Source: Kagunavirus LM02P1
Sequence record: OZ035819.1
Direction: 5' to 3' (one strand)
Length of the DNA stretch: 43,420 bases
This document shows positions 2,796-22,551 of the stretch, piece by piece. The notes under the pieces are model-generated. The model had not been told where the DNA came from. It did no database searches and saw only the letters and a program-made list of their open reading frames with translations. How positions within the stretch are numbered: the stretch's first letter is position 1; each line of letters begins with the position of its first letter. The position numbers and the translations under genes are program-made.

Positions 2796-3872
2796 ATGCT
2801 ATTAACTTTAGCGCCACAGGGTTTATTTATGAGCTTACTGACATCACTAATCAGCCACCAGATTTGGCTGCAACGCAACGCATCTGGCGAAGTGAAAGAC
2901 CTCGCACCGTTCATTCAGGAGATGCGGGATGAAATCAAACGGCAGGTGCTGTTGTTCGGCGACGACGGGAGAAGCACCGCGCGTCTCAATAAACTGTTAC
3001 GCGACTTAGAAGAAGCACTGACAGGGCTAGCCGGAGACTGGCAAACAAAGCTGACCGAAGACCTTAAGGAACTGGCAGCGTATGAGGCTGAGTGGAATGT
3101 GAAAACACTCACGGCTAACGTCAACGCTGAATTTGTTACCCCTACCGCTGAGCAGGTGTGGTCTGCAGCCGTGTTTCAACCGCTGGCGTTACGCGACAAG
3201 CCAGTTGATTTCACTAAGCTAATGGATGGCTGGGGTGAAACAGAAGTATCGCGACTGGTAACTGGTGTTAAGATGGGTTTCGTTCAAGGCCAAACCACAC
3301 GGCAGATTGTTAAAAATGTCGTTGGCGCTGGCGGACTGGCGGACATCTCTGAGCGCAACGCAGCTACGGTAACCCGCACCGCGCTGTCGCACATATCCAA
3401 CGAAGCACGCAACGAGACGTACCGTCAGAACGACGACATCATCGAGAAATATGAATGGGTATCGACGCTTGACAGCCGTACCAGTACGATTTGCAGAGCC
3501 AGGGACGGAATGACGTGGGAAATCGGTAAGGGGCCGATGCCCCCCGCCCATTTTGGCTGCCGAAGCACCACAGCACCTGTAATCAGTTCAGAATTCGACT
3601 TCCTCGATAAAGACGCAAAACGTGCAGCTAAGGGTGCGGACGGCGGAACTCAGGTAAGCGTGGACACCTCTTACTACGAGTTCCTAAAACAACAACCGGC
3701 ATGGTTTCAGGATGAAGCACTCGGTCCTGTTCGCGGTAAGATTTTCCGCAACAGCGGTATATCGCCGGAAGAGTTTCGCGTAATATCTGTAGATGGTTTC
3801 GGGAATCCGCTTACGCTTAAGCAGATGGCGGAACTCGATAAACGTGTTGCTGATTATCTGAAAGGGGAATAA
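2796..3872 (+). CDS. head morphogenesis protein (Mu F / SPP1 gp7-like minor capsid protein)
   Basis: 358 aa; conserved stretch WVSTLDSRTSTICRARDGMTWEI...PPAHFGCRS typical of this family; follows portal; alternative ATG at 2829. Confidence 0.75.
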   Translation: MLLTLAPQGLFMSLLTSLISHQIWLQRNASGEVKDLAPFIQEMRDEIKRQVLLFGDDGRSTARLNKLLRDLEEALTGLAGDWQTKLTEDLKELAAYEAEWNVKTLTANVNAEFVTPTAEQVWSAAVFQPLALRDKPVDFTKLMDGWGETEVSRLVTGVKMGFVQGQTTRQIVKNVVGAGGLADISERNAATVTRTALSHISNEARNETYRQNDDIIEKYEWVSTLDSRTSTICRARDGMTWEIGKGPMPPAHFGCRSTTAPVISSEFDFLDKDAKRAAKGADGGTQVSVDTSYYEFLKQQPAWFQDEALGPVRGKIFRNSGISPEEFRVISVDGFGNPLTLKQMAELDKRVADYLKGE

Positions 3873-14465: not shown

Positions 14466-14825
14466 TTGCTCCAGTTTGCCCGTTGGAACTTCATAACCCG
14501 CCACAAACGGCAGGAGTTTGACAGTATTGCCGACGGGCATAAAGCCGCGCTAATTGCTATGGGGGTTATGCAAGATGCGCCGGAAGCAACGCAGGACACC
14601 GGGCCAGAATGCCCCCATGAGCTATTAACCACCTTCGAGAAGTACAGGGAAATCAAATTCACCCGCCGAGTTGACGACGATGGCATCAAGATGTACCCGC
14701 GCGAACAGTTAAGATGGTCAGATTTAGTGGCGTACAGTACCGTTTCAGGCCAGAATATAGACATGTTTGAATCTGACATCATCATGAGCTTAGACGCTAT
14801 TTTCGAGGGTAGAAACGATGGCTGA
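14466..14825 (+). CDS. second tail assembly chaperone ORF (T-like, putative)
   Basis: 119-aa ORF, TTG start without good RBS, -1 frame relative to upstream ORF and open from 14409; overlaps tape measure start. Confidence 0.35.
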   Translation: MLQFARWNFITRHKRQEFDSIADGHKAALIAMGVMQDAPEATQDTGPECPHELLTTFEKYREIKFTRRVDDDGIKMYPREQLRWSDLVAYSTVSGQNIDMFESDIIMSLDAIFEGRNDG

Positions 14826-17154
14826 TGTAGCTAGTTTAGTTGTAAAAGTATCGGAGCAAGGCGCGAAAGCTACATCGGACCGTCTTGATAATCTCTCCAA
14901 GTCGGCAAAGGTAGCCGGAGCTGCGGTAGCGGGCCTCGCTTCCATCGTCGCCGCTACCGCGTACAAGGCCGCACAGGAACTGGTAGACTCCCAACGGCAA
15001 CTGGACAAGATGTCCGCCAGCCTGAAAACACTAACCGGAAGCACGCAGGGTGCAAGACAGGCATTAAGCATCCTGCAAGACTTCGCGCGAGACACTCCGT
15101 ATGGCCTTGAACAGGCGGTAGAGGGATTCCGTAAACTGGTGGCTCTCGGCCTTACCCCCTCAGAAGAAGCGTTGCGATCCTATGGCAACACTGCCGCTGC
15201 TATGGGCAAAGACCTTAATCAGATGATTGAGGCCGTTGCGGACGCCAGTACATTTGAATTTGAGCGCCTTAAAGAATTCGGCATCAAGGCCAAGCAAAAC
15301 AAAGACGATGTTGAATTTACCTTCCAGGGCACCACTACGGTAGTTAAGAAGAGCGCTGCCGACATCGAGCAATACCTGCTCAACATTGGTAACGTAAACT
15401 TCGCGGGGGCTATGGCGGACCAGGCCAACACACTTAACGGGGCCATCGCCAGTGCCAGCGATTCCTGGTCACAGTTAAAAATGACACTGGCTACCAGCCT
15501 TGATGTTGGCGCTCTTGCGGAACCCATCCGGTACATCGATGATTTAATCCAGGAACTTAACGCACAGGTAGCATCCGGCGAACTCGCCGCTGAGATGCGT
15601 ATGTGGGGTGACATCGCGTCGGAAGTAGGAAGCGCGATAGAGATGTCGTTCGATGCGGCATTTGGTTTCGTAGGTGACGCGATAAACGGGCTGAATGAAC
15701 TTTGGGATTTTAGCAGTAAAAGCATCACAGACAGCGGCGAACAAACGGCGACAACCATCGCGGAATCAGCTGCCGATGCGCTCGATTTCATCGCAGAAGA
15801 ATTTACCGCGATGGAGCGATTCTTTGAAGATATGGTTAAAGGGGCACAGGACGCTGGCCGGTTGGTGAAAGCTGCCTTCACACCAGGGGAATCTGTAGAC
15901 GTAGCAAAAAACATTAACTTCCAGCTAGGGATGGCACTGGATACTCAGCGCGATGTTGCGGACCTGACCCGTAAAAGTTTCCGCGAACAGGTGGAGGCCC
16001 AGCAAAATATTGTCGCGCTTAAACGCGCAGCATATGACATCGACAAAGAAGCCGCTAAGGAAGAAGGGCTTAGTAAATTTAAGGTAACTGGTACTGGTGG
16101 CGGGTCCGAAGATGATAACGCTAGCGCAAAAGCCGCCAAGAAAGCTGCGGATGCGTTCGAGCGCCAGAAGAAAGCCGCTGAGGATTTCTACTACCAGTCG
16201 ATTCATCTCAATGATGACGTATTCCAGAAAATAGAAGCCAACCAGGAACAGCAGTTAACCAAGCTACAAGAGTTTTACGGCAATCAGCTTCTTAGCGACC
16301 AGCAATACGAGAACGCTAAAACTCAGATTATGCTGGAGGCGGACACCGCACGTCAGGAAGAACTCGCCAAGCGAGAGAAAGAACGACAGGAGAAGAACCA
16401 GAAAGGCGAAGACTTCATGGCTCAGATTATGGGCCAGAACGCCGCTGAGCTTGAGCTTCTGGAGATTCAGGAGCAACAAAAACTTGACGTTGCAGACAAA
16501 TACCGCGAACAGAACCTTATTAACGAGGAGCAGTACCAAGCAGCGGTTAACGCGATAAATGACCAGTACGCATTGAAACGCGCCAACGCGACAGGTAATG
16601 CTTTCGGGATGATGGCGGATAATATTAAGTCGTCTCTCGGCGAAGCGTCTACGGCGTACAAAGCGTTTGCTATCGCCCAGGCCACCATAGCCACATACAC
16701 ATCCGCTATAGAGGCATATAAGTCCGCGTCCGCGATTCCTATTGTCGGCTGGGTGCTCGGCCCGGTGGCTGCTGCCGCAGCCGTAGCAGCGGGTCTGGCG
16801 AACATTGGTAAGATTCGCTCCGCACGTGAACAGGGGGGTAACCTAGCCGCCGGTCAGTTATCTACCATCGCAGAACGAAACAAACCAGAAGTTATCATGC
16901 CAGCAGGCGCATCGCGTGTTCGCACCGCACAGCAAATGAAAGAGATTATGGGCGAGAACGGCAACAAGTCAGGCGGTGACAGCGTTACAATCGTCAACAA
17001 CACCACCGGACGTGTTGATTCCGCCGTTACAGAGCGTGACGACGAAGGGCGGTTACGTGTTATCATCAGCGAAACAGTATCGGCGGCGTTACAAGACAGC
17101 AACAGTGCAATCTCTAAGTCACGCCGTGCTACACGAAACCAGCCGGGGTATTAA
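14818..17154 (+). CDS. tail tape measure protein
   Basis: 778 aa; alpha-helical, A/Q/E-rich; largest gene in the tail block, preceded by chaperone pair. Confidence 0.8.
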   Translation: MADVASLVVKVSEQGAKATSDRLDNLSKSAKVAGAAVAGLASIVAATAYKAAQELVDSQRQLDKMSASLKTLTGSTQGARQALSILQDFARDTPYGLEQAVEGFRKLVALGLTPSEEALRSYGNTAAAMGKDLNQMIEAVADASTFEFERLKEFGIKAKQNKDDVEFTFQGTTTVVKKSAADIEQYLLNIGNVNFAGAMADQANTLNGAIASASDSWSQLKMTLATSLDVGALAEPIRYIDDLIQELNAQVASGELAAEMRMWGDIASEVGSAIEMSFDAAFGFVGDAINGLNELWDFSSKSITDSGEQTATTIAESAADALDFIAEEFTAMERFFEDMVKGAQDAGRLVKAAFTPGESVDVAKNINFQLGMALDTQRDVADLTRKSFREQVEAQQNIVALKRAAYDIDKEAAKEEGLSKFKVTGTGGGSEDDNASAKAAKKAADAFERQKKAAEDFYYQSIHLNDDVFQKIEANQEQQLTKLQEFYGNQLLSDQQYENAKTQIMLEADTARQEELAKREKERQEKNQKGEDFMAQIMGQNAAELELLEIQEQQKLDVADKYREQNLINEEQYQAAVNAINDQYALKRANATGNAFGMMADNIKSSLGEASTAYKAFAIAQATIATYTSAIEAYKSASAIPIVGWVLGPVAAAAAVAAGLANIGKIRSAREQGGNLAAGQLSTIAERNKPEVIMPAGASRVRTAQQMKEIMGENGNKSGGDSVTIVNNTTGRVDSAVTERDDEGRLRVIISETVSAALQDSNSAISKSRRATRNQPGY

Positions 17155-17157
17155 CCA

Positions 17158-17652
17158 ATGAGTGATTTGAGATTCCCTATGTCCCTTCGACCAATAGTGT
17201 CGAAGGGGTACTCCCAAACGCGAGGGAGTAATATCTGGCGTACAGAAGTGCAAGGCGGCGTTCCGCGTCAGGGCCGAGACACATACTTCGAACCGGTGCC
17301 GATTAGCGTTACCCTGGTTGTGTCGTCACTAGGCCGCCAGGCTTTCTATAGCTTTCTGAATAACATAGACGGCGGGGCGTCTTCGTTCATCATGCCTCAC
17401 GATACCGGTTTAGGTATCGAAGACCACCAGGTTCTTATTACGTCTGATATTAGCGATAGCACTGACGATGGTAAGAACTGGGTGATTACGTTCACAGCCA
17501 CCGCGGAGCGGACTGCGATTCAGGAAGACACATGTCTTACTAAGAATCTACCGGATTTGTTTGGTTGTTATGGTGATTGCTTGGGTGGGTTCCTTAAAGC
17601 ATACGGAACCGCGCAGTCAACGTTTCCACGAATTTGGGACCCTATGCAATGA
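17158..17652 (+). CDS. minor tail protein (lambda M-like)
   Basis: 164 aa; KGYSQTRG and FYSFLNNIDGGASSF resemble the lambda gpM pattern; follows tape measure. Confidence 0.5.
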   Translation: MSDLRFPMSLRPIVSKGYSQTRGSNIWRTEVQGGVPRQGRDTYFEPVPISVTLVVSSLGRQAFYSFLNNIDGGASSFIMPHDTGLGIEDHQVLITSDISDSTDDGKNWVITFTATAERTAIQEDTCLTKNLPDLFGCYGDCLGGFLKAYGTAQSTFPRIWDPMQ

Positions 17653-18164
17653 GCCAGGAATCAGTAGAAGCAGCCTATCGCCGTAAACTGGCCTCCAACC
17701 CGGACGGCGAAATTGACTACACGACGCTGGAGATAGTGCATCCGCTTCTTTCGAAGCGGTATTTACTTGTGCGCGGAACTTCTGACCTGACGGCAACGTT
17801 AGAGACCGGAGAAGTAGTTACGTTTGAGGCCACACCAATGGAGGCTAAAGGGGCCGCCAACAATAATGATATGGACCAGCGGGCATCATTCGCACTACCC
17901 GACATCGGCAACCAGTTAGACGATGAGATGGATAGGATACCCCCCGATAATACCGTGTTGCCTAAGTTTATATTCCGCCGTTTTGTTAGTACCGATTTGT
18001 CTTATCCGGCGGATGGGCCTGTTGTGTACGAGTTGCAGTCAATAAACCAGGAAAAGGGGATATTCACCGCTGACGTCGGCGTACCTATGTTGAACCAAAG
18101 GGCCACTGGTGAACTAATGACCCCTTCGATGATCCCATTGTTACGCGGTGTTTTGTCTACATGA
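17634..18164 (+). CDS. minor tail protein
   Basis: 176-aa ORF overlapping upstream gene by 19 nt; position between M-like and K-like genes. Confidence 0.45.
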   Translation: MGPYAMSQESVEAAYRRKLASNPDGEIDYTTLEIVHPLLSKRYLLVRGTSDLTATLETGEVVTFEATPMEAKGAANNNDMDQRASFALPDIGNQLDDEMDRIPPDNTVLPKFIFRRFVSTDLSYPADGPVVYELQSINQEKGIFTADVGVPMLNQRATGELMTPSMIPLLRGVLST

Positions 18165-18526
18165 ACATTAATTCTTATACAGGGTTGCCGTACGATTTTC
18201 GCCGTCGTAATTGCTGGCACCATGTGCGTAACGTCCGTGCGGACGCGGGCCTGGCCACGCCTGAGTTTAACGTCGCATCGCCAACACAGATTAATGATGC
18301 ATTTGAAGAAGGTCATAAAAACGCTAAAGGTCTCGTACGCGTAGAAACCCCGCAAAACTTTGATGCCGTTCTGATGGCAACACGGCACAGAAACCGTGTA
18401 ATCTGGCACGCTGGCATATATTATGATGGTATGGTCAGTCATTGCGAGCTAGCAAGTCGCCAGGTACGGTTAGACCGACTGGAAGACTTGCGCGAAACTT
18501 ATGCGGAGATAGAATTTTGGCGCTGA
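18161..18526 (+). CDS. tail assembly protein K-like (NlpC/P60-type Cys/His fold)
   Basis: 121 aa; candidate catalytic Cys in RRRNCWHHV and downstream His residues (VIWHAGIY, VSHCE); position. Confidence 0.45.
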   Translation: MNINSYTGLPYDFRRRNCWHHVRNVRADAGLATPEFNVASPTQINDAFEEGHKNAKGLVRVETPQNFDAVLMATRHRNRVIWHAGIYYDGMVSHCELASRQVRLDRLEDLRETYAEIEFWR

Positions 18527-21069
18527 TATTACATTACACCCGTAACGAAGACGGTACTTTTGACCGCAAACGGTATAACGTACCCCCGATGGAATACGTC
18601 GTTGCTAACATCCCAGACGGGGTACCTGTGCGTATTTACCGCGGCGAGATTGGTGATGATACAGACGTAACGGAAAACTTCGAAGCGCTGAAAGAAGATG
18701 ACGTTTTCCATATCATCGAGGGCGCTGGCGGCGGCGGTGGTTTTCTGGGTAAACTCCTGGACCCTTTGGGTGTGCTTAAATTTGTTACCAAGTTGATTTC
18801 TCCGTCGCAGAAAACGCCTAAAACGAGTTTAGCGAACCAGCAGGCGGAGTCCCCCAACAACAGCTTGACGGACCGAAACAATAAACCGCGTCCGTATGAA
18901 CGGTCGTATGATATTTGCGGCAGGGTCCAGACTATCCCTAATAACCTCATGACTACGTATAAGGTCTTCAATGACGCAGGTGTGGTAGTTGAATACGGCT
19001 ACTATGACGCCGGTCGCGGGTATCTTGATATTAAAGCCGAAGACATCACCGACGGCGATACTAAAGTACAGGAGATTACAGGAACTTCTGTAGCGGTATA
19101 CGCCCCATTTACGTCCCCTAACAACACAAATACGCCTCAGCTTCTGGTAGGGGATCCTATTAATCAGAATCTATACATAACTATTGCCTCGAACGAGGTA
19201 GATGGGGTCGTTCTTAAAGCGCAGAACGACATCAGGGTTAATCCCAGTGATACCGGGGAGATTTCATTGCAGGGGGCAACTGGTGTCGTCCGCGATAACA
19301 CTGGCGACTCTGCTTTCTCTGAGATTTTATCAGTTGGGGACATAGCTGTTTTTAACCTTATTCTGGTAAAAGACGTGGCTAACGTCAGTGGTAGCTATAC
19401 TGTTACATACGTAGATGACTTTGAGGTAAGAGTAGCCGCCGGAGGGATGTTGTCAGAATGGCAAAAATTGCCATCGGGATTCACTCCTTTAACGCAAGGT
19501 ACCGAAGCATGGATTTCACCATCTAACACCTACGATAAGTCGTTAACGGACTGGACTACTTTAAACCGCCTGGAAATTGAACGCGTAGTAGCCAACATCG
19601 CGGCCGCGAATGGTATGTATAAAGACAACGGTAGTAAATTGCGCACGTCGGTAACTGTCGAGATTCAGTATCAACTCCTTGATGAAACTGGCGTGCCGTA
19701 CGGTGATGTTTACTCAAAACAGGCCGTTATATCAGGTCGTTCTGCGGATTACACAGGTGTTACTATTTACGCCGACTTGCCCGTGCGGTCTAAAGTTAGA
19801 GTGCGCGCCCGCCGTGTTACTAACCTTGACCTCAGTTTCGAGGGGACCGTGGTAGACGAGGTTTCCTACATCAACCTTTATGGGCAGGTACGCGACACTA
19901 CACCGCATTACGGCAACCGTACTACCGTGCACTCCGCACGTAAGCAGACGCCGCGGGCCGCAGAGATTAAGCAGCCGCAACTACGTATGGTTGCCACAGA
20001 GATGGTGTACAAATACCTCGGCAACGGCATATTCGACACGGTTATGACGCCTAATACTCAGGCGATTCAGTCCTTAATCCGTCTTGCCCGCGACCCGGCA
20101 GTAGGTAATCTCAACCTAACAACATCCAATATGGACAAGTTGTTAGCGACTCAGACCGAGATAGAAAACTATTTCGGTAGCGCAGAGGCTGGTCAATTCT
20201 GCTACACTTTTGACGATTATAAAATGACCATGCAGGATATCATCAGCACAATAGCTGATGCTATTTTCTGTACGCCGTATCGTAAAGGGCGGGACATATT
20301 ACTGGATTTCGAGCGCCCTCGTATGGGGCCGGAGATGGTATTCACCCACCGCAGTAAGACAACGGCATCTGAGAAGTGGACTAGGACATTCAACGACGCT
20401 CAGGTATACGATAGTCTTAAGTTCTCCTACATCGACCCAGATACCAACGTAAAAGAGACTATTAGCATTCCAGCCGAAGGTGGTGTTAATACTGAAACGT
20501 ATGACTCCAAAGGTATACGTAACTATCGCCAGGCGTATTGGGCAGCTTATCGACGTTACCAGAAAAACTTGTTGAAGAAAGTCACGGTGTCCTTTACGGC
20601 GACAGAAGAAGGAGTTTTTGTGCTGCCGGGTCGCGCAATAAGCGTCGTTAAAGGTTCGCGCGTAGCGCCTCAAGACGGCTATGTTGTTGCCGTTAATGGT
20701 CTTACCCTGACGTTATCACAGCCTGTCACATTTACTCCGGGTGACGACCACTCTTTAATCCTTAAGAAGCGCGACGGTGGTGTTCAGAGCGTCTCGGTAG
20801 TTCCTGGAAGTCACGAACGGGAAGTAATTATGTTATCCGCGCCGCAGGAGGCGATATACACAGGGAATAGCGCGCTAAAAACTGAGTTTTCATTCGGCAA
20901 CGAAGCAAGGCATAATGCTCAGATGATTCTTGTTTCTACAGTTGACCCAGGAGATGACAGAACAGTTAAGATTACCGGGATTAACTACGAAGCAGATTTC
21001 TATAAATACGACGGCGTCGCACCTTTCGGTAGCGGTTTCTCCGGCGGATTCAGCAACGGTTTTAGTTAA
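18442..21069 (+). CDS. central tail fibre / host specificity protein (lambda J-like) with gpI-like N-terminal region; true start unresolved
   Basis: 875-aa frame; N-terminal ~150 aa resemble lambda gpI (VFHIIEGAGGGGGF); remainder is a large beta-rich tail tip protein. Confidence 0.55.
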   Translation: MRASKSPGTVRPTGRLARNLCGDRILALILHYTRNEDGTFDRKRYNVPPMEYVVANIPDGVPVRIYRGEIGDDTDVTENFEALKEDDVFHIIEGAGGGGGFLGKLLDPLGVLKFVTKLISPSQKTPKTSLANQQAESPNNSLTDRNNKPRPYERSYDICGRVQTIPNNLMTTYKVFNDAGVVVEYGYYDAGRGYLDIKAEDITDGDTKVQEITGTSVAVYAPFTSPNNTNTPQLLVGDPINQNLYITIASNEVDGVVLKAQNDIRVNPSDTGEISLQGATGVVRDNTGDSAFSEILSVGDIAVFNLILVKDVANVSGSYTVTYVDDFEVRVAAGGMLSEWQKLPSGFTPLTQGTEAWISPSNTYDKSLTDWTTLNRLEIERVVANIAAANGMYKDNGSKLRTSVTVEIQYQLLDETGVPYGDVYSKQAVISGRSADYTGVTIYADLPVRSKVRVRARRVTNLDLSFEGTVVDEVSYINLYGQVRDTTPHYGNRTTVHSARKQTPRAAEIKQPQLRMVATEMVYKYLGNGIFDTVMTPNTQAIQSLIRLARDPAVGNLNLTTSNMDKLLATQTEIENYFGSAEAGQFCYTFDDYKMTMQDIISTIADAIFCTPYRKGRDILLDFERPRMGPEMVFTHRSKTTASEKWTRTFNDAQVYDSLKFSYIDPDTNVKETISIPAEGGVNTETYDSKGIRNYRQAYWAAYRRYQKNLLKKVTVSFTATEEGVFVLPGRAISVVKGSRVAPQDGYVVAVNGLTLTLSQPVTFTPGDDHSLILKKRDGGVQSVSVVPGSHEREVIMLSAPQEAIYTGNSALKTEFSFGNEARHNAQMILVSTVDPGDDRTVKITGINYEADFYKYDGVAPFGSGFSGGFSNGFS

Positions 21070-21081
21070 AGAGGACTCTAT

Positions 21082-22551
21082 ATGTCAAGCGGATGCGGTG
21101 ACGTTTTAAGCCTGGCGGATTTACAGACCGCCAAGAAACACCAGATTTTCGAAGCTGAGGTTATCACCGGTAAATCCGGCGGCGTTGCTGGTGGCGCTGA
21201 TATTGATTACGCGACAAATCAGGTTACGGGGCAGACTCAGAAGACCGTGCCTAAGGTTATTTCAGACATCGGCATCGAGCGAATCGGCGACTTCACGAAC
21301 GGAGGTACGGTCACTGCAAGAAATCAGGGCATGTTGGAGGAGGGTGGGTCGGTGTACACCTGGCGCGGTTCCCTGCCGAAGGTAGTACCGGCTGGAAGTA
21401 CTCCACAGTCAACCGGCGGAATATACCCAAACGGGGACTGGATTGACGTAGGCGACGCTACCATACGCTCGGTGCTTAATGGCCCGGACGGGACGGGACT
21501 GAATTATTTCTTCGGTGGTGGGGGATGGGCCGGAGAAAATGCTGCGGGTGTTAATATATACAATAACGACACTATAACCTACGACAATGCCCTCCGTCAG
21601 CGATTTTCAATACCGGATACCGCTAATCCTCTCCCAATAGAGTGGCTCGAGAAGGTTACATCCGCTACCCGCGAGGACGAGGTGAAAAGATGGGAGCAAG
21701 GTTGTTCTTACCATTCCCTCACTAAAGTTAGCGGTTCCGCATACGGGGCCACAGATACCTCAGTAGCCACCCATTCGTCTGGTACAGGGCAACTTATTGC
21801 TAAGCATATGCGCGGTGAGTCCCGTCACAGTAATGCAGAGACGTGGGGGGGATGGTCATATGGCGCGGTTCTTGGTGAAGCAATCGATACAGGTGCCAAA
21901 AGCACTATTGCACATGAGTTTAACCTAAATAACCGCGGCCCCGACATGGGGTGGATGCAGAATGCTGTTGATGGGAGCACAAGGGGGCTTGTATGCGTAA
22001 CCCAAGACAATAGTAACCCGGTAACACAGATGCTTGTGATAGGGAGAGGTTCCGCGGCCCCTAATGGTTATATATGGACCGGTGCACTTTTTCGGGCTAA
22101 CTCTTTTGTTGCCCCAACTGAGCCATTAACAGAGGTCGGGAACGGGGAGGCTATTAGACTCGAGGGGAGTTCAGTGCTTTTGGTGTCCAACGGTATAAGA
22201 TTCCGCGGTGGCGCATTTAGAACCGGTATTTCGTTGACAGAAAGTACGTTTTCCTCAAACTGCGCAATTTTATTAGGTGATAACCAACGAATTACCGTAG
22301 GTACTGGTCCGGCAAACACCACATATCTCGCGTTTAACCGGTCCGAGGGGTGGGTTGATTTTTCTAATTTAAATATACGCTTGAATGGGACAAAAATTTT
22401 AGGGCCACGTGTTACGGGGATAAACCAGTTAACCGGAACCGCCGACGGGGTTTCAAAAAACACCGAGACTGTTACCCTGCAAGAACTGGCCCGTTATGTT
22501 AAAAAGGTTACAGACGCCCTGATTGCTCATGGTATAATGGGTCCTTCTTAA
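21082..22551 (+). CDS. tail fibre/spike (receptor-binding) protein
   Basis: 489 aa, Gly/Thr/Asn-rich, last large gene of late operon; RBS AGAGGA. Confidence 0.55.
   Translation: MSSGCGDVLSLADLQTAKKHQIFEAEVITGKSGGVAGGADIDYATNQVTGQTQKTVPKVISDIGIERIGDFTNGGTVTARNQGMLEEGGSVYTWRGSLPKVVPAGSTPQSTGGIYPNGDWIDVGDATIRSVLNGPDGTGLNYFFGGGGWAGENAAGVNIYNNDTITYDNALRQRFSIPDTANPLPIEWLEKVTSATREDEVKRWEQGCSYHSLTKVSGSAYGATDTSVATHSSGTGQLIAKHMRGESRHSNAETWGGWSYGAVLGEAIDTGAKSTIAHEFNLNNRGPDMGWMQNAVDGSTRGLVCVTQDNSNPVTQMLVIGRGSAAPNGYIWTGALFRANSFVAPTEPLTEVGNGEAIRLEGSSVLLVSNGIRFRGGAFRTGISLTESTFSSNCAILLGDNQRITVGTGPANTTYLAFNRSEGWVDFSNLNIRLNGTKILGPRVTGINQLTGTADGVSKNTETVTLQELARYVKKVTDALIAHGIMGPS

Follow-up and report, generated by a model that had tools for sequence, protein, structure and literature searches.

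In phage lambda, gpI is a structural protein, a trimeric plug that augments the sheets of gpJ with its strands; along the gpI chain, an N-domain without resolved density is followed by two hydrophobic helices, the plug that closes the tip lumen beneath the tape measure protein's C terminus, and the strands that augment gpJ (PMC10721106, PMC11101478). Receptor binding frees this plug, its helices have been proposed to enter the outer membrane, and the plug of phage T5 pb3 has been proposed to be equivalent to gpI (PMC10721106, PMC11101478). A computational survey described the TAPI proteins as a ubiquitin-like domain, a glycine-rich linker and a TAPI-C region, sometimes fused to TAPJ; the TAPI–TAPJ fusions of prophages adjoin an NlpC/P60 protein without the JAB domain, which was proposed as a processing enzyme and whose absence is typical of the I–J fused versions (Iyer, Burroughs & Aravind 2006, Genome Biol 7:R60; PMC1779556). 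In the Shigella siphophage Sf11, the baseplate hub 2 protein gp14 was identified as a virion protein by mass spectrometry and is present in three copies per virion; it was modelled as one continuous chain from residue 81 to 827 (PDB 9OCC chain E; PMC12724387). Here we analyse a related gene of Kagunavirus LM02P1 (sequence record OZ035819.1) in a stretch of 43,420 nucleotides (nt), referred to below as the window. We consider it highly likely that positions 18517–21069 encode a trimeric baseplate hub ('BH2P', or Tal-like) that combines, in one polypeptide starting at TTG 18517, a lambda gpI-like module with the hub part of gpJ (HDII–HDIV), with a plug role suggested by analogy.

The prophage fusions have exactly the LM02P1 arrangement, a ubiquitin-like TAPI fused to TAPJ beside a JAB-less NlpC/P60 protein, a likeness of architecture drawn from a computational description (PMC1779556). 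With lambda gpI (PF06805; 8IYK chain I) and gpJ (8IYK, 8K35 and 8XCG), the LM02P1 protein has in common the sequence in which its elements follow one another: a ubiquitin-like domain, a glycine-rich linker, a helix region, a conserved C-terminal motif and then the J hub domains. Unlike it, lambda makes gpI and gpJ from two genes and has a K protein with both JAB and NlpC/P60; its gpI carries two strongly hydrophobic helices, and its J runs on for ~600 further residues, forming a central fibre and a receptor-binding domain that LM02P1 does not have. T5 pb3 (PDB 7ZHJ) is also a single-chain hub and carries its own lumen plug, but the T5 plug is inserted within the HDII-insertion and HDI is part of the same chain, whereas the plug-like module of LM02P1 is N-terminal and its HDI is presumably in a separate L-like protein (DUF1833).

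The closest solved structure to the hub is Sf11 gp14. The two proteins are of one length class (828 versus 850 amino acids (aa)), sequence matches by phmmer connect their N-terminal modules (30–198 to 32–190) and their C termini, and the gene order is the same: distal-tail-type protein (DTP), hub 1, a small gene, hub 2 and tailspike. The first 80 residues of gp14, which have no model, correspond to the beta-grasp domain and glycine linker of LM02P1. Differences are an identity of ~18% over the fold alignment and a DTP of 457 aa in Sf11, against 164 aa in LM02P1. Much of the subject is already known: the gene is the conserved 'tail protein' of the Guernseyvirinae, a solved homologue exists and the TAPI–TAPJ fusion was published in 2006. 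What we add is modest, namely a firm start codon for an inconsistently annotated gene and an explicit connection to lambda gpI for the first ~170 residues of the Sf11-type hub. That connection speaks for conservation of the tip-complex domains, with the domains split differently among the genes of different siphophages.

A gpJ-like hub and a gpI-like module in one chain

The similarity of residues 173–850 (19033–21066, plus strand, as are all features within the gene) to lambda J is solid by BLASTP, phmmer and Foldseek. Residues 316–761 (850-aa numbering, used throughout except where the longer frame is named) align with lambda J 75–533 by BLASTP (E = 1e-9 over 481 columns), the protein matches PHROG 469 with 831 bits and PHROG 31 at 4e-23, and phmmer searches of the PDB (E = 3e-5 for hub homology) found lambda J as well as Sf11 gp14, the latter with the stronger match. 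An AlphaFold2 model of the hub protein, built from a 49-sequence alignment (mean pLDDT 84.4), gave Sf11 gp14 as the best Foldseek match (E = 1.8e-50) and lambda J at 1e-30, with a TM score of 0.68 to the open-state lambda J chain (8xcg_J); further fold matches were T1 (2e-24), T5 pb3 (2.7e-10), Chi (9e-9) and RcGTA (1e-6). The initial annotation had the frame continue into a J-like fibre. The J similarity stands, and the part so described is a hub (HDII–HDIV of J) without lambda's central fibre, because just ~90 residues follow the J-aligned region, compared with ~600 in lambda J. Receptor binding is presumably performed by the separate tailspike encoded downstream.

Upstream of the hub, residues 1–172 form a module in which four elements can be told apart. 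Residues 1–70 (18517–18726) are predicted to fold as a ubiquitin-like beta-grasp domain, the counterpart of the gpI/TAPI N-domain, which ends in glycine and passes, as in TAPI proteins, into a glycine-rich linker (GAGGGGG, residues 69–75, 18721–18741), with low AlphaFold2 confidence from residue 71. At the place of the gpI hydrophobic helices stands an amphipathic helix (residues 76–95, 18742–18801; modelled as helical at 83–94). The last element is the motif SPNNxLxxRxNxxRPxxRIPDIxGxVRSxPDL (residues 107–148, 18835–18960), the putative counterpart of the TAPI-C or plug-and-strand region of gpI; no motif of the family is better conserved than its SPNNxLxxRxNxxRPxxRIPDIxG region, with S112, N115, N122, R125, G135 and P141 invariant in 49 sequences. 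The module is encoded between a K-type gene and a J-type hub, beginning 10 nt before the stop of the K-like gene and running into the J-like region. In BFVD, Foldseek with the N-terminal model matched its own family and, weakly, ubiquitin.

Comparison of alignments links this module to gpI. With a shallow gpI alignment, all of whose members are at least 70% identical to lambda, a first hhalign comparison was weak (P = 0.005), and the score rose only once this was replaced by 17 diverse gpI proteins (from lambda, Mannheimia, T1-like, HK97-like, Ralstonia, Burkholderia, Pseudomonas, Vibrio, Psychrobacter and Acinetobacter phages). Against these, the 48-sequence N-terminal alignment is collinear end to end, with the elements in the same order. 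The local score was 29.5 (P = 7e-4), compared with 14.2 for the reversed alignment and 16.2 ± 1.8 (maximum 22.5) for 60 block-shuffles; the global score was 22.3 (P = 3e-4), compared with 3.7 and 4.9 ± 4.2 (maximum 15.7), respectively. In both modes the real score was reached by none of the 60 block-shuffles and none of 60 column-shuffles. There is also an ungapped 26-residue motif match between gpI (xNKPSYAFGGAVNTTAQGxPVPLxYG) and the Kagunavirus hub family (QESPNNSLSDRSNQARPNQRIPDIYG), with P4, [LF]8, N13, [IV]21, P22, Y25 and G26 as shared positions. We conclude that residues 1–172 are most likely a genuine, though distant, counterpart of lambda gpI.

The two regions are joined almost wherever the family was found. 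An uninterrupted open reading frame (ORF) is present in 496 of the 507 matching phage records, ~120 near-identical public proteins have the same single ORF, and so do metagenome relatives at 25–50% identity. After clustering at 50%, the N-terminal module occupies residues 1–165 of proteins of 750–1500 aa in nearly all of 116 representatives. When 1.8 billion representatives were searched by phmmer with the N-terminal 165 aa, no stand-alone gpI came up; short matches suspected to be stand-alone proteins were contig-end fragments of long hub proteins. Because the single ORF recurs in the phage records and in distant relatives, the I–J frame is a true fusion.

In an unrelated annotation matter, Burkholderia phage phiBtTUL1a (positions 391–985 of locus L011) contains a complete stand-alone gpI frame that is annotated as two small hypothetical proteins; the record starts its 'host specificity protein J' inside the gpI frame, which is more likely an annotation error than a true fusion.

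Start codon and competing explanations

The longest frame in the ORF list is the one initially annotated, 18442–21069 (plus strand), with a TTG start and 875 codons, and as an ORF it shares 85 nt with the K-like ORF at 18161–18526. Comparison with relatives places the real start 25 codons further on, at TTG 18517, which is common to all relatives and gives a product of 850 aa plus stop; read this way, the first 25 codons (18442–18516, plus strand), which lie inside the K-like gene and are noncoding in the hub frame, are a longest-ORF artefact. The overlap of the two genes accordingly shrinks from the 85 nt first noted to 10 nt, from TTG 18517 to the end of the K-like stop TGA at 18524–18526. 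A Shine–Dalgarno sequence, GGAG, can be read 8 nt 5′ of this TTG (18505–18508, plus strand) and is kept in Kagunavirus relatives, Jersey and K1G, with AGAGG at that place in Eta. The 25 codons upstream of the TTG contain five in-frame stops in Jersey, two in K1G and three in Eta, including in all three a TGA two codons before the TTG. The LM02P1 subclade has lost this stop via one base (GGAGATAGA versus GGAGATTGA), and it is this single change (GATAGA versus GATTGA) that opens the frame and so produces both the apparent start at 18442 and the 85-nt overlap. In the junction comparison of relatives, synonymous and nonsynonymous changes in the upstream stretch number 13:4 and 12:3 in the K frame, and 2:16 and 2:14 in the J frame. 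Downstream of the TTG, the next 24 codons are kept as protein (LALxxHYTRNxxGxF) in Jersey, K1G, Eta and more distant relatives, and position 1 of the PHROG 31307 profile falls on residue 26 of the 875-aa translation, which is TTG 18517. The identical 850-aa protein is already public (P0247).

Most annotators and gene callers prefer the TTG, among the deposited relatives EF2-1, Jersey, K1G and Eta; Henuyfy11N is annotated from an ATG 72 nt downstream and Sciku from a GTG 255 nt downstream. Deposits of Kagunavirus and Jerseyvirus genomes thus give at least three starts (850, 826 and 766 aa), among which the comparison fixes the TTG. In published virion proteomics of Jersey-like phages we found nothing usable that maps the hub N terminus. 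Two annotation practices touch the same region: in Sciku, 245 nt at the 5′ end of the hub gene are left as an unannotated gap (positions 2841–3085 of locus L002), and in some genomes the ubiquitin-like domain is listed as a separate small hypothetical protein (BFVD Q5IGV9 from SS3e, 78 aa, and A0A494RI20, 108 aa).

The initial annotation had left three explanations standing side by side: a true fusion, an internal J start or a sequencing frameshift, and had proposed alignment to lambda I, lambda J and relatives to separate them. Our results favour the fusion. A sequencing or assembly frameshift that merged separate I-like and J-like genes would draw on nothing beyond an architecture unusual relative to lambda, and it is all but excluded: hundreds of independently determined genomes, and distant relatives too, have the single ORF, and cryo-electron microscopy of the Sf11 homologue shows an unbroken chain. 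Translation from an internal start, at ATG 18589 or GTG 18772, with the upstream part untranslated or made as a separate product, has somewhat more in its favour, in that the annotations of Henuyfy11N and Sciku chose these starts, TTG is a rare start codon and the Sf11 gp14 model begins only at residue 81. We nevertheless regard it as very improbable: codons 1–24 are conserved as protein, the domain encoded upstream folds with a pLDDT of ~95 in the predicted model, and neither start has the Shine–Dalgarno sequence that precedes TTG 18517. The ATG is not shared by Jersey, whose first ATG is at +225 nt, and none of Jersey, K1G and Eta has an in-frame equivalent of GTG 18772. The opposite possibility, that the real product is the 875-aa protein from TTG 18442, with peptides MRASKSPGTVRPTGRLAR..., has the length of the ORF and the lost stop on its side; against stops in the hub frame of other relatives, selection that follows the K frame, family profiles that begin at residue 26 and an upstream sequence (TGATGGTATGGTCAGTCA) without a Shine–Dalgarno sequence 5′ of 18442, its probability is close to nil.

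More weight belongs to the question of whether residues 1–172 are homologous to lambda I, which the N-terminal ~150 aa of the long frame were initially said to resemble. These residues might instead be a lineage-specific hub extension that shares a small beta-grasp fold and a helix with gpI and is analogous to it. Several results count against homology, or against carrying gpI function over to this module. BLASTP of lambda I against the hub protein gave short collinear patches only (E = 0.14), so the resemblance is a remote one. PF06805, which all true gpI homologues carry, was absent from the whole protein at E ≤ 0.01 and from 48 N-terminal sequences, including 47 relatives, at E ≤ 10. The N-terminal profile scored at most 5 bits by hmmsearch against lambda I and 120 gpI homologues, no better than lambda K, and among all PDB sequences it found only Sf11 gp14 (E = 9e-15) and no gpI even at E ≤ 10. 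The hhalign probability was just 17–26%, without secondary-structure scoring. The helix segment is transmembrane-grade in 40 of 46 relatives and, unlike in gpI, amphipathic in LM02P1 (Kyte–Doolittle 1.21; median for relatives, 2.46). A gpI-like region is not mentioned in the Sf11 paper (PMC12724387), and the plug role of the presumed counterpart region (Sf11 gp14 81–170, gpI 134–222) is one that we infer by analogy. Mere analogy nevertheless appears unlikely to us, given a profile–profile alignment that is collinear through all four elements and scores above every control, the ungapped match to the gpI family motif, the same gene position, immediately following K and either preceding J or joined to it, and the TAPI–TAPJ fusions with JAB-less NlpC partners reported by Iyer et al. 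2006 (PMC1779556).

Proposed role at the tail tip

Hub translation from TTG 18517 is probably coupled to the end of the K-like gene for the JAB-less NlpC/P60 protein. If the gpI-like module is a counterpart of the lambda plug, the LM02P1 tip could work as follows. Lambda gpI and the plug of T5 pb3 suggest by analogy that residues ~76–172 would take the plug and strand role while remaining covalently tethered to the hub. When the tip opens at the cell surface, the plug and strand segment and the preceding helix may, on the same analogy, be set free in the direction of the outer membrane. Because the LM02P1 helix is amphipathic, its insertion into the membrane is less certain. Host recognition would be left to the separate tailspike (21082–22551).

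A more speculative extension, which we regard as doubtful, makes the ubiquitin-like domain a removable pro-domain: after aiding hub folding or docking, it might be cut off at the glycine run (residues 69–75) by the K-like peptidase encoded next door, a papain-fold NlpC/P60 protein without JAB, leaving a mature protein that begins at ~76–81. The start of the Sf11 gp14 model at residue 81 and the lack of resolved density for the lambda gpI N-domain fit cleavage and flexibility alike. With cleavage, phage tail assembly would include a maturation step resembling deubiquitination; otherwise no new biology is implied.

Neighbouring genes in the window

By megablast, the window belongs to Kagunavirus (Guernseyvirinae), with identities of 97.6% to Kagunavirus PDP21P8 and of 88–96% to many E. 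coli phages over positions 17100–21245. A search of the whole window (1–43420) found no tRNA or tmRNA genes. The genes around the hub are ordered tape measure protein (14818–17154), DTP, L-like (DUF1833), K-like, hub and tailspike. The K-like gene (18161–18526, plus strand) encodes a 121-aa NlpC/P60-type protein without a JAB/MPN domain, assigned to PHROG 329 (minor tail protein); it has no Pfam match, its relatives are annotated as NlpC/P60 or gamma-D-glutamyl-L-lysine peptidase, and BLASTP gives a weak match, surrounding the catalytic Cys (RRRNCWHH versus GVTDCYTL), with the NlpC/P60 portion of lambda K.

The L-like protein belongs to DUF1833 and PHROG 396. Its gene is listed as 17634–18164 from TTG 17634 (176 aa); relatives annotate 171 aa, which corresponds to ATG 17649, a codon that overlaps the preceding stop as ATGA, so that the listed start is probably the same kind of longest-ORF artefact. 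The DTP (17158–17652) has 164 aa, like those of EF2-1 and Jersey (157–166 aa), whereas Sciku and Henuyfy11N have a longer version (~460 aa), as does Sf11 (457 aa), in which the tailspike adaptor is formed by a part of this protein (PMC12724387); because of this indel of ~900 bp, many megablast matches fall into two pieces.

The tailspike begins with a TSP1/Gp66 N-terminal domain and keeps the N-terminal adaptor of its family, ~130 aa long. Its C-terminal 350 aa (21502–22548) are not common even to PDP21P8, with similarity ending at ~21245, and matched only 5 of 50,697 phage records, at ~31% identity; these records are from E. coli phages of ~145–150 kb, namely ECML-183-2, tuntematon and nieznany, the latter two as GenBank and RefSeq copies. 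On sequence similarity, the C-terminal part of the tailspike looks like a swapped receptor-binding module.

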